Of a stretch of DNA of 64,000 nt, positions 41,435-46,664 are shown piece by piece. Below the pieces are notes generated by a model. It saw only the letters and a program-made list of their open reading frames with translations. It searched no databases and was not told where the DNA came from. The translations under genes and the position numbers were made by a program. Positions within the stretch are counted from its first letter, which is position 1. Each line of letters starts with the position of its first letter. The DNA comes from Escherichia coli (GTDB lineage: Bacteria; Pseudomonadota; Gammaproteobacteria; Enterobacterales; Enterobacteriaceae). The DNA lies in NCBI RefSeq assembly GCF_003334355.1, contig NZ_QOWP01000001.1. One strand, written 5' to 3'.

Positions 41435-41450
41435 ACATTTGTCTTTAATG

Positions 41451-41496
41451 CACTGTAAATTATGAATTAATCCTCTAATTTACAGTGTTTTCTATT
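41451..41496 (+). terminator. Hairpin plus T-tract after ubiK
   Basis: CACTGTAAATT / AATTTACAGTG perfect 11-bp inverted repeat with a 15-nt loop, followed by TTTTCTATT; AT-rich stem, so it could instead be a protein-binding palindrome. Confidence 0.45.
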
Positions 41497-41717
41497 ACAT
41501 TATCGCTTAATCCCATTCAGAGTATCATCACAAAAATGAATGATTGCAATTGAAAATATAATTGTTATGTATTCTTTAAGTTTTACTTAATCGATATTTA
41601 GATAAACTAATTTTATAAAAATCACAAAACAAAATATAATATTTTAATGATTGGTAGTCCTTAAATAACAGTTACTAATCATTCTCTTTTTTACTTATCT
41701 TTATATAAAGGAATATT

Positions 41718-42269
41718 ATGTCTGCTTTTAAAAAGTCACTTCTTGTTGCTGGTGTAGCAATGATTCTTTCCAATAACGTGTTTGCTGATGAAGGTCACGG
41801 TATTGTTAAATTTAAAGGTGAAGTTATCTCTGCTCCATGTTCTATTAAACCAGGTGACGAAGATTTAACTGTAAATCTGGGTGAAGTAGCAGATACCGTA
41901 CTGAAAAGCGATCAGAAATCTTTGGCGGAACCTTTCACTATTCACCTGCAGGACTGCATGCTGAGTCAGGGTGGAACTACTTATTCAAAAGCGAAGGTTA
42001 CTTTCACTACAGCAAATACCATGACGGGTCAGTCTGATCTTCTGAAAAATACCAAAGAAACTGAAATCGGCGGCGCCACTGGCGTTGGCGTACGTATTCT
42101 GGACAGCCAGAGCGGCGAAGTAACTTTAGGTACTCCGGTAGTAATTACGTTCAACAATACCAACAGCTATCAGGAACTGAATTTCAAAGCTCGTATGGAA
42201 TCCCCAAGCAAAGATGCCACCCCGGGCAACGTTTACGCTCAGGCTGACTACAAGATTGCTTACGAGTAA
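41718..42269 (+). CDS. ygiL: Fimbrial major subunit (type 1 pilin-like) YgiL
   Basis: 183-aa ORF with signal peptide MSAFKKSLLVAGVAMILSNNVFA; AAAGGA Shine-Dalgarno; AT-rich upstream region. Confidence 0.85.
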   Translation: MSAFKKSLLVAGVAMILSNNVFADEGHGIVKFKGEVISAPCSIKPGDEDLTVNLGEVADTVLKSDQKSLAEPFTIHLQDCMLSQGGTTYSKAKVTFTTANTMTGQSDLLKNTKETEIGGATGVGVRILDSQSGEVTLGTPVVITFNNTNSYQELNFKARMESPSKDATPGNVYAQADYKIAYE

Positions 42270-42319
42270 TCGCATTTGGCCGGGTTCACCCGGCCACATC
42301 ATTAACGGATTAATGATAA

Positions 42320-44827: not shown

Positions 44828-44848
44828 AATTAATTCAGGATGAAACTA

Positions 44849-45598
44849 ATGCGCTACTTAAATACAAAGAATATCATTGCAGCAGGAGTATTACTCTCCT
44901 GCATGAACAGCATTGCCTGGGGTGCCATCATCCCGGATCGTACCCGTATAATTATGAATGAGTCAGATAAAGGCGAAGCATTAAAACTTACTAATCAAAG
45001 TAAAAAACTGCCCTATCTGGCCCAAACATGGATAGAAGATACGAAAGGCAATAAATCTCGTGACTTTATTGTTACGGTTCCTCCTATGGTGCGTTTAAAT
45101 CCCAATGAGCAAATTCAGATTAGAATGATAACTCAGGAAAAAATTGCTCAACTTCCTAAGGACAGAGAAACTCTGTTCTATTTTAACGTGCGAGAAATAC
45201 CGCCAAAAACAGATAAAAAAAATGTGATGCAAGTGACTATGCAGCACGCTTTGAAATTATTCTGGCGGCCAAAAGCCATTGCGTTAGAAGACGATGGAGT
45301 AATGACTTACGAAAAAGTTGAAATCATCCGTAGAAATGATGGTTCGATCCGCTTTAACAATAAAATGCCTTATCACGTTACGCTGGGTTATATCGGAACA
45401 AATGGGGTCACGATGTTACCGCAAACGCAAAGCTTAATGGTCCTCCCTTTTAGCCATGCAGATACGCAGTTTAAAAATGTTCCATCAAATTTTCAGGTTG
45501 GTTATATCAATGATTTTGGTGGCTTAAGTTTTTATGAAATAAACTGCCCAACAGTGAATAATTCTTGTAATGTTTCCGTAGCCAAACGAGATAAATAA
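44849..45598 (+). CDS. yqiH: Fimbrial periplasmic chaperone YqiH (PapD-like)
   Basis: Trimmed to 249 aa (MRYLNTKNIIAAGVLLSCMNSIAWG signal); an ATG 3 codons upstream is an alternative start. Confidence 0.88.
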   Translation: MRYLNTKNIIAAGVLLSCMNSIAWGAIIPDRTRIIMNESDKGEALKLTNQSKKLPYLAQTWIEDTKGNKSRDFIVTVPPMVRLNPNEQIQIRMITQEKIAQLPKDRETLFYFNVREIPPKTDKKNVMQVTMQHALKLFWRPKAIALEDDGVMTYEKVEIIRRNDGSIRFNNKMPYHVTLGYIGTNGVTMLPQTQSLMVLPFSHADTQFKNVPSNFQVGYINDFGGLSFYEINCPTVNNSCNVSVAKRDK

Positions 45599-45599
45599 A

Positions 45600-46664
45600 A
45601 TGCGCTACTTATTAACTGTAATTGCATTTATTATGGGTTTTAGTGCGTTACCTGTATGGGCGATGAACTGCTATGCTGAACATGAAGGGGGGAATACCGT
45701 AGTCATAGGCTACGTACCAAGAATTGCTATCCCCAGCGATGGTAAAAAAGGTGATAAAATCTGGCAAAGCAGTGAATATTTTATGAATGTCTTCTGTAAT
45801 AATGCACTACCCGCCCCATCACCAGGAGAAGAATACCCATCTGCATGGGTAAATATAATGATGTTGTTAGCATCAGGTCAGGACTTTTATAATCAAAACT
45901 CATATACTCTTGGTGTAACCTATAATGGAGTCGATTATGATTCAACCTCCACACGAGCTATCGCAGCACCAGAGTGCATTGATGTTAAAGGCGCAGGGAT
46001 ATACAGTAATACCTATAAAAACCCCGCTGTCTGTAGCGGTGGTCCTGAACCTCAATTGTCAGTAACTTTTCCAGTACGTGTACAGCTGTATATTAAGCTG
46101 GCTAAAAATGCTAATAAAGTAAATAAAAAACTTGTATTACCTGACGAATATATCGCCCTGGAGTTTAAAGGTATGAGTGGCACAGGAACTATAGACACAG
46201 ACAAAAATTTGACCTTCAGAATTCGTGGGTTAAATAATATTCATGTCCTTGACTGCTTTGTTAATGTTGATCTGGAACCAGCTGATGGCGTTGTCGACTT
46301 TGGTAAAATAAATTCCCGAACAATTAAAAATACCAGCGTGAGTGAGACGTTTAGCGTAGTCATGACCAAAGATCCGGGTGCGGCCTGTACTGAGCAGTTT
46401 AATATTTTAGGGAGTTTTTTCACTACGGATATTTTGAGTGATTATAGCCATCTGGATATAGGTAATGGTCTGCTATTGAAGATATTTCATAACGATGGAA
46501 CAGCAACGGAATTTAACCGCTTCTCACAATTTGCTTCTTTTTCATCGTCTAGTGCGCCTTCGGTCACCGCACCATTCAGGGCAGAACTGAGTGCGAACCC
46601 GGCAGAAACGGTTGTTGAGGGACCGTTTAGTAAAGACGTAATCCTGAAAATCACCTATAACTAG
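45600..46664 (+). CDS. yqiI: Fimbrial protein YqiI (putative tip adhesin/minor subunit)
   Basis: 354-aa ORF MRYLLTVIAFIMGFSALPVWA (signal); starts 2 bp after yqiH; larger than a major pilin. Confidence 0.8.
   Translation: MRYLLTVIAFIMGFSALPVWAMNCYAEHEGGNTVVIGYVPRIAIPSDGKKGDKIWQSSEYFMNVFCNNALPAPSPGEEYPSAWVNIMMLLASGQDFYNQNSYTLGVTYNGVDYDSTSTRAIAAPECIDVKGAGIYSNTYKNPAVCSGGPEPQLSVTFPVRVQLYIKLAKNANKVNKKLVLPDEYIALEFKGMSGTGTIDTDKNLTFRIRGLNNIHVLDCFVNVDLEPADGVVDFGKINSRTIKNTSVSETFSVVMTKDPGAACTEQFNILGSFFTTDILSDYSHLDIGNGLLLKIFHNDGTATEFNRFSQFASFSSSSAPSVTAPFRAELSANPAETVVEGPFSKDVILKITYN

Follow-up and report, generated by a model that had tools for sequence, protein, structure and literature searches.

A probable intact copy of the Escherichia coli Yqi-like chaperone-usher fimbrial operon on a low-GC island between ubiK and glgS

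Two types of Escherichia coli chaperone-usher fimbriae carry closely similar names, Yqi and Yqi-like, and were described as distinct and mutually exclusive (Wurpel 2013, PMC3559732). The published Yqi fimbriae, also termed ExPEC adhesin I (EA/I), are encoded by a cluster at the site yqiD-ribB that is not present in K-12 (Antao 2009, PMC2771359), and fimbriae, colonization (chicken lung) and glycan binding have been shown for EA/I only (Antao 2009, PMC2771359; Day 2021, PMC8545135). The Yqi-like type, to which the operon studied here belongs, was catalogued in K-12 (PMC3559732). In that strain, genomic SELEX placed both an RpoD promoter and a site for H-NS within the spacer yqiC(ubiK)-ygiL (PMC3946193). 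Transcripts of ygiL and yqiG, designated Yqi-like, were detected and were more abundant in HUS-associated STEC (PMC6033998). A literature search returned no report of a phenotype, of surface-fiber assembly or of adhesion for the ygiL-yqiGHI type, nor ligand data for its YqiI, the available glycan-array data being those of EA/I from CFT073. The PDB already contains crystal structures of both adhesin types, which shows that the family is being actively studied, and the novelty of what follows is limited; a search for a paper on entries 9RWE, 9RX0, 9RWW and 9RWU gave chance string matches only. A further point of comparison are the P (Pap) pili, the archetypal system of the pi clade.

The window analyzed here is a 64,000-nucleotide stretch of an E. 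coli genome, in which four co-directional genes at positions 41718-46664 encode the pilin YgiL, the usher YqiG, the chaperone YqiH and the adhesin YqiI. These genes and the other stranded features of the island reported below are on the plus strand. With a probability of about 85%, the four genes constitute, in intact form, the Yqi-like chaperone-usher fimbrial operon of E. coli (ygiL-yqiG-yqiH-yqiI), which came in on a 5.3-kb low-GC island inserted between ubiK and glgS. The operon is thereby an already catalogued E. coli feature that is ordinary and complete in this window. The four open reading frames were found where the original prediction, made from the sequence alone, had placed them, and in RefSeq the identical sequence of strain PSS-12 is annotated with four intact CDS. 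Two start codons had to be mended according to this annotation: the usher begins with the ATG at 42329 (832 amino acids) and not with the mechanically assigned GTG at 42320 (835 codons), its stop remaining at 44827, and the chaperone begins at 44849 instead of 44840.

The operon and the Yqi-like operon of K-12 (PMC3559732) share the ubiK-glgS site, the gene order and the gene lengths, and are collinear once the IS2 element is removed from the latter. Nucleotide identity to MG1655 is 99.5% for ygiL, 96.4% for yqiG, 93.6% for yqiH and 92.1% for yqiI, and the YgiL proteins are identical (100%). The window differs from K-12 in that the usher gene contains no IS2 and stops two codons earlier, and in that the adhesin has another allele of the receptor-binding domain. 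As judged from these alignments, the location between ubiK (yqiC) and glgS and the orthology with the K-12 genes place the operon in the Yqi-like type.

The protein families support the canonical chaperone-usher operon that had been predicted. The gene ygiL (41718-42269) encodes the predicted major pilin of 183 amino acids, with a signal peptide, which matched the NCBIfam equivalog NF007276 with 384 bits (cut-off 189) and the Pfam family Fimbrial (PF00419; E = 2.2e-21); N-terminal hydrophobic leaders are visible. The outer-membrane usher YqiG (42329-44827) is uninterrupted and contains, in a single frame, PapC_N (residues 35-177; E = 1.8e-30), Usher (195-747; E = 1e-189, spanning model positions 3-549 of 549) and PapC_C (759-811; E = 1.1e-10). 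The periplasmic chaperone YqiH (44849-45598; 249 amino acids) is a two-domain PapD-like protein composed of PapD_N (E = 9.6e-36) and PapD_C (E = 6e-8). Among proteins of solved structure, YqiG and YqiH were closest to their P pili homologues: the usher scored 579 bits with PapC versus 298 with FimD (phmmer), and the chaperone 145 bits with PapD versus 85 with FimC. The best NCBIfam models for YqiG were those of StdB and related ushers (558-700 bits), which belong to the pi clade, and the FimD model scored 273 bits. YqiG would accordingly group with PapC and not with the FimD-type (gamma) ushers, that is, in the pi (Pap-like) clade of Nuccio and Baumler, with bit scores serving here as a proxy and not as a phylogeny. 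Genes for a dedicated regulator, a terminator subunit or adaptor pilins are missing from the operon, which makes the architecture of a Yqi-like fiber an extrapolation.

The boundaries of the island became apparent from a comparison with UTI89, in which ubiK and glgS flank an empty site. Homology to this site ends at window position 41374 and restarts at 46678, delimiting an island at 41375-46677; in the annotation of O157:H7, ubiK likewise adjoins glgS. The island has a GC content of 40.6%, as compared to 51.7% for the remainder of the window, and that of the leader (41435-41717) is 21.6%. The segment thus qualifies as a genomic island, being lower in GC than its host and present in some strains but absent from others, in which the empty site is well defined; both the AT-richness of the segment and leader and the horizontal acquisition that had been proposed are borne out. 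The island also encodes the 3' end of ubiK (41375-41434; last 20 codons with the stop): the 19-letter UbiK tail is the same in the window and in K-12, and the island-free UTI89 has ARNNPIAELQSPPAIPPVDKAE instead. At the other end, a GC-rich hairpin at 46684-46703, found in the terminator scan (fold z = -5.0), is a predicted terminator common to yqiI (plus strand) and glgS (minus strand); since it is also present at the UTI89 empty site, it is part of the conserved flank and not of the island. A search for the donor species found none, the closest adhesin relatives outside E. coli being at most 40% identical and encoded at unrelated loci. Distantly related genes in Enterobacter, Salmonella and one further host have neighbors in the same order, pilin-usher-chaperone-adhesin.

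The leader appears to be the regulatory region of the operon. The hexamers of the published K-12 promoter are kept in the window (TCGATA at 41591-41596 and TATAAA at 41614-41619), and a second promoter-like match, TTTATA-17-TATAAT, is located at 41612-41640. Since promoter and terminator scans showed no enrichment over shuffled sequence (13 promoter sites versus 16.2 expected), they were used for locating candidates only. No Dam GATC site, a signature of phase variation, and no fimS-like long inverted repeats of an invertible element were found in 41435-41717, where inverted repeats are short and AT-rich. Directly after the ubiK stop, an AT-rich hairpin followed by a T-run (41451-41493) includes a 12-nucleotide perfect inverted repeat (41451-41462/41476-41487; RNA fold -15.6 kcal/mol, z = -4.8) and is likely to be the ubiK terminator, which would insulate the operon. 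Two further hairpins are located between the pilin and usher genes (42274-42317; -22.5 kcal/mol, z = -3.3), the first with a GC-rich GGCCGGGT/ACCCGGCC stem and the second with an AT stem; no T-run follows them. By analogy with other fimbrial operons, they possibly act as an attenuator or as an mRNA-stabilizing element that sets the pilin:usher ratio.

The original prediction had stated that the usher gene of K-12 is disrupted by an insertion sequence, and this was correct. The annotation of MG1655 lists yqiG (b3046) as a pseudogene split by IS2I. The insertion point corresponds to the position after window base 42399, and the element is flanked by a 5-bp target duplication, GTTAT; in the window, this target (42395-42399) is unoccupied and the gene is continuous. 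Apart from IS2, nothing interrupts the usher frame of K-12. The usher is carried by 3,312 of 5,426 complete E. coli genomes and absent from about 39% (some 2,100). Because only 369 genomes contain the K-12 junction, an intact usher is the norm of the species and not special to the window strain. Independent insertions of IS1, ISVsa5 or ISKpn26 were seen at the Yqi-like locus of other strains, and of 57 full-length usher hits sampled at even spacing, about 10 were split and about 80% were in one piece. Both the frequent insertions and the absence of the usher would fit a selection that is weak or conditional. These same data, together with the H-NS binding reported for the K-12 leader (PMC3946193) and the absence of a reported phenotype, could be read as signs of a silent relic that looks intact here but is no longer used and drifts toward loss, as has already occurred in K-12. 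We regard this as improbable: selection on yqiG, yqiH and yqiI, relative to K-12, has been purifying (dN/dS 0.08-0.12), and has been so over a long term given a dS of up to 0.57 in the N-terminal domain of the adhesin; most usher copies sampled are uninterrupted, and transcripts were reported in STEC isolates (PMC6033998).

The similarity of names raises the question of the relation to EA/I. The EA/I clusters of the B2 strains UTI89, CFT073 and APEC IMT5155 have the same four-gene architecture and gene names as the Yqi-like operon, their usher and chaperone are likewise Pap-like, and their two-domain adhesin is homologous to YqiI; the alignment of the two adhesins extends over the full length (E = 1.6e-65) and shows the same pattern of cysteines, and about 1 kb of chromosome separates the two systems. 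Were the two systems one and the same, the receptor (terminal beta-GlcNAc, Lewis A and blood group B glycans) and the role in the chicken lung would be transferable. This is, however, very unlikely. The insertion sites differ, since yqiD-ribB, which is occupied in UTI89, APEC_O1 and IMT5155 and syntenic with Enterobacter, is empty in the window (39974-40118) and holds 5.5 kb in UTI89. Protein identity to EA/I of UTI89 is just 59% for the pilin, 56% for the usher, 49% for the chaperone and 36% for the adhesin. A DNA-level match to yqiI was absent from 2,072 of the 5,426 genomes even by sensitive blastn, presumably including the B2 reference UTI89. The PDB holds separate entries for the N-terminal domains of the Yqi-like (9rwe) and EA/I (9rwu/9rwv) adhesins, and the published classification (Wurpel 2013) and the absence of EA/I from K-12 (Antao 2009) also keep the types apart. 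Membership of the window operon in EA/I is refuted by the empty yqiD-ribB site, the adhesin identity and the missing nucleotide match. The idea that the B2 cluster is a diverged allele at the same site was also rejected, given the absence of yqiI-like DNA from about 2,070 genomes by both megablast and sensitive blastn and the other insertion site in UTI89. The literature on "Yqi fimbriae" concerns a paralogous, B2-specific cluster, so what it reports on receptor and virulence should not be transferred to ygiL-yqiGHI.

The adhesin YqiI (45600-46664; 354 amino acids) deserves separate consideration. NCBIfam contained no matching family and Pfam gave only a weak Fimbrial match (E = 0.0024; residues 228-354), so that its domains were identified from the PDB and by modeling. 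A signal peptide (residues 1-21) is followed by a receptor-binding domain (residues 22-218; 45663-46253), which was crystallized alone from a sister allele (PDB 9rwe), and by a pilin domain (residues 219-354; 46254-46661). The AF2 model consists of two beta domains, and structure comparison showed a resemblance to two-domain adhesins and their receptor-binding domains. Whole-protein Foldseek TM-scores reached only about 0.3, as the two domains are oriented differently relative to each other, and the N-terminal domain was therefore modeled separately. Two-domain architecture and the beta-sandwich class of the receptor-binding fold are common to YqiI and LpfD, MrkD, Abp1D, CupB6, F17-G and FimH, and the tip adhesin of P pili also combines a receptor domain with a pilin domain. 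The six cysteines of YqiI are conserved in position with those of the EA/I adhesin. The model and the fold matches thus point to a two-domain tip adhesin with an N-terminal receptor-binding domain, a C-terminal pilin domain and no N-terminal donor strand. The suspicion that YqiI, at 354 amino acids, might be a tip adhesin is substantiated by this N-terminal domain of about 197 residues that is added to the pilin domain; the functional data published under the Yqi name belong to the paralogous EA/I. There is next to no chance that YqiI is an ordinary minor or structural pilin, as the weak Pfam match and the lack of an NCBIfam model might suggest, since that match is limited to residues 228-354 and residues 22-218 form a separate beta-rich domain (9rwe) structurally like the receptor-binding domains of known tip adhesins.

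Three alleles of the receptor-binding domain were distinguished: 1,544 records have the K-12 type, 1,268 the B1/LY180 type and 559 that of the window. Between these types, 22-27 residues differ, with a concentration in surface loops, and the pilin domain and flanks are nearly identical. Within the mature N-terminal domain (22-218), 27 residues are variable. Relative to K-12, YqiI of the window has 24 amino acid changes, all within residues 1-218, and dN/dS in the receptor-binding domain is 0.09 at the dS of 0.57. It can tentatively be proposed, as a possibility that we consider rather less probable than its converse, that at least three old, discrete alleles have been kept by selection, either balancing or niche-specific, for distinct receptor specificities, and that recombination with a breakpoint between the two domains has shuffled them.

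The following mechanism is proposed for the Yqi-like operon. In the window strain, a sigma-70 promoter in the AT-rich leader would drive its expression, and H-NS would be bound there, probably silencing the operon under laboratory conditions. The subunits would be exported by Sec and capped by the PapD-like YqiH through donor-strand complementation. The PapC-like usher YqiG would then recruit YqiI first, which can occupy only the tip position because it possesses a receptor-binding domain instead of an N-terminal donor strand. Polymerization of YgiL by the usher beneath YqiI would result in a simple two-component fiber, in which the N-terminal domain of YqiI may bind a host or surface ligand.

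The practical value of these data is one of clarification, including that of the naming trap around "Yqi fimbriae". Because its usher is broken there, the Yqi-like system cannot be studied in K-12, and the window strain, ATCC 8739 or W are the right background for testing it. The new detail concerning the YqiI alleles is modest. Nevertheless, their structure hints at the region in which strains might differ functionally, and if the proposed selection on receptor specificity is true, they would represent a PapG-class-like polymorphism in a "cryptic" commensal fimbria.

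The window is E. coli chromosome. Its gene order, taken from the ORF list, Rfam, and the RefSeq annotation of strain PSS-12, which has a 100% identical stretch, is zupT, yqiD, ribB (with an FMN riboswitch), ubiK, ygiL, yqiG, yqiH, yqiI, glgS, yqiJ, yqiK, and sib/ibs. The genes ygiL, yqiG, yqiH, and yqiI (41718-46664) encode a pilin, an usher, a chaperone, and an adhesin, and form a chaperone-usher operon of the catalogued, already known "Yqi-like" type. The ORF list and the RefSeq annotation place the four frames where the original prediction had them, except that RefSeq uses ATG 42329 as the usher start (832 aa) in place of the mechanical GTG 42320, and 44849 as the chaperone start in place of 44840. 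What that prediction had observed, an AT-rich operon with an uninterrupted usher, was confirmed, and its interpretation is supported. The FMN riboswitch upstream of ribB (40874-41022, minus strand) and two SIB antitoxin RNAs of the sibD/sibE type, which are paired with ibs toxin ORFs (49717-49866 and 50092-50241, both minus strand), were identified at full length by Rfam and are ordinary, K-12-like elements.

The original statement that the usher is disrupted in K-12 is correct, and the disruption is already part of the standard annotation: MG1655 yqiG (b3046) is annotated as a two-piece pseudogene split by IS2I. Exact matching placed the IS2 insertion point after window base 42399; the 5-bp target duplication GTTAT of K-12 is present as a single copy in the window (42395-42399), where the site is empty. 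Once the insertion sequence is removed, the K-12 usher reads as an open frame that is collinear with that of the window. It is K-12, not the window strain, that is unusual. The usher is present in 3,312 of 5,426 complete genomes, and of 57 full-length copies sampled at even spacing from the usher matches, 47 were in one piece. The exact K-12 yqiG::IS2 junction was detected in 369 genomes in the complete-genome search, a set that, going by the listed examples, is probably inflated by laboratory derivatives; other strains carry separate insertions of IS1, ISVsa5, or ISKpn26. The usher stop in the window (44825-44833) is two codons before that of the K-12 frame without IS2, and RefSeq still lists the window-type usher as intact.

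In the alignment with UTI89, homology stops at window position 41374 and restarts at 46678, and the Yqi-like operon thus sits on a genomic island of 41375-46677; ubiK directly adjoins glgS in UTI89 and in one O157:H7 strain, with no island there. The predicted AT-richness was borne out, since the GC content is 40.6% in the fimbrial segment versus 51.7% elsewhere in the window, and 21.6% in the 283-bp leader (41435-41717). On the left, the island begins 60 bp within the frame of ubiK, a ubiquinone-biosynthesis accessory gene, so that the last 20 codons of ubiK (41375-41434, plus strand, by the UTI89 comparison) are island encoded and the 20-residue tail of UbiK differs in strains that have the island. 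UbiK has 96 aa and one common tail in the window and K-12; that of UTI89, which is without the island, has 99 aa and ends in ...ELEARNNPIAELQSPPAIPPVDKAE, and O157:H7 UbiK is also annotated as 99 aa. A GC-rich hairpin between yqiI and glgS is part of the conserved flank. When the usher (query 42329-44827) and yqiI (query 45600-46664) were searched against complete E. coli genomes, parts of them also matched plasmids, at 66 and 29 places, respectively, an example being a 151-kb plasmid with usher query bases 799-2499. This suggests that operon fragments have been mobilized, probably via flanking IS elements.

For the yqiC-ygiL spacer of K-12, a genomic SELEX study lists an H-NS mark and an RpoD promoter of the sequence TCGATA-17-TATAAA (PMC3946193); the window has retained the two hexamers unchanged (41591-41596 and 41614-41619, plus strand). 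Overall, the leader shares just 92.9% identity with its K-12 counterpart, although the neighboring ubiK and ygiL reach at least 99.5%. A consensus TATAAT at 41635-41640 reads TATCAT in K-12, so that expression could vary between strains. A search of the leader at 41435-41717 found neither GATC sites nor repeats resembling those of invertible elements, and the operon contains no regulator gene. A hairpin followed by a T-run 3' of the ubiK stop is a putative terminator, and a GC-rich hairpin 3' of the pilin stop may act as an attenuator or stabilizer. Yqi-like ygiL and yqiG were up-regulated in HUS isolates in an STEC transcriptome (PMC6033998), so that some strains, at least, transcribe this type.

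The usher YqiG contains PapC_N, Usher, and PapC_C domains, the chaperone YqiH contains PapD_N and PapD_C, and the pilin YgiL belongs to PF00419 and scores above its NCBIfam equivalog cut-off. Among solved structures, PapC is by far the nearest to the usher (579 bits, versus 298 bits for FimD), as is PapD to the chaperone (145 bits, versus 85 bits for FimC). This fits the Pap-like (pi) usher clade, to which the best NCBIfam relatives (StdB and others) belong. Distant relatives in Enterobacter, Salmonella, and one further host lie in clusters with the same four-gene order. The assembly system is Pap-like, but the receptor domain of YqiI is not PapG-like. Pfam detected in YqiI only a weak Fimbrial domain (residues 228-354), whereas the 197-residue chain of PDB entry 9rwe aligns with residues 22-218 (E = 3e-119); this extra N-domain agrees with the predicted role of YqiI, which by architecture is a putative tip adhesin. 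The 9rwe chain has exactly the sequence of the LY180 (B1-type) YqiI allele; of its 197 residues, 173 agree with the window. The family is small (86 matches at E <= 0.001 among 1.84 billion representative proteins), and beyond E. coli and Shigella, the protein search found no relative of the Yqi-like adhesin with an identity above 40%.

Nucleotide identity to K-12 is mosaic: 99.5% for ygiL, 96.4% for yqiG, 93.6% for yqiH, and 92.1% for yqiI, then 100% for glgS and the glgS-yqiJ spacer, 99.5% for yqiJ, and 98.4% for yqiK. All 84 yqiI differences fall into codons 1-213, within the receptor-binding half (45600-46253, plus strand), the last at 46238; the pilin-domain half (46254-46664, plus strand) has none, and the sequence from 46238 to about 49100, the remaining yqiI plus some 2.9 kb downstream, is nearly identical. 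For codons 1-218, dS is 0.57 and dN is 0.054 (dN/dS 0.09). Complete E. coli genomes harbor three discrete yqiI classes, at >=99% (559 records), ~92% (1,544), and ~90% (1,268) identity to the window. Between any two of the three alleles, 22-27 residues of the N-domain and 0-3 of the pilin domain are different. Variable positions cluster in loop segments that the model predicts with low confidence (Spearman -0.54, p = 0.014). These data point to old receptor-domain alleles that are under purifying selection and exchanged by recombination.

The operon is not that of the published "Yqi" fimbriae, ExPEC adhesin I (EA/I), which occupy another site and whose proteins share 59% (YgiL), 56% (YqiG), 49% (YqiH), and 36% (YqiI) identity with those of the window. 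Wurpel et al. (2013) already separated "Yqi" (B2) from "Yqi-like" (A, B1, D, E), two related types that exclude each other (PMC3559732), and Antao et al. stated that the EA/I cluster is absent from K-12 (PMC2771359). In UTI89, the 5.5-kb EA/I cluster is located between yqiD and ribB; the corresponding attachment site is empty in the window (39974-40118, UTI89 alignment). Two related fimbrial islands are hence inserted some 1 kb from each other, one on either side of ribB-ubiK. EA/I was found in 993 genomes. The zupT-ribB site looks ancestral because Enterobacter carries an EA/I-type four-gene cluster there (3073-8062 of a locus of GCA_029678285.1; Enterobacter mori), to which EA/I is orthologous (usher 73%, adhesin 55% identical). 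The N-domain of EA/I has its own PDB entries, 9rwu and 9rwv, apart from the Yqi-like 9rwe; with 9rww and 9rx0, the deposited N-terminal adhesin domains comprise the Yqi-like type, the EA/I type, and two further relatives, and a literature search found no paper naming any of these five entries. It is EA/I for which fibers were seen by electron microscopy and a colonization defect was observed in chicken lung, and the CFT073 EA/I cluster that bound terminal beta-GlcNAc, Lewis A, and blood group B glycans (PMC2771359, PMC8545135). Since these data belong to the other locus, they do not assign a receptor to YqiI, in line with the original statement. The name "Yqi" is therefore misleading, in that the published fimbriae and the glycan and lung data do not derive from the ygiL-yqiGHI locus type of the window.
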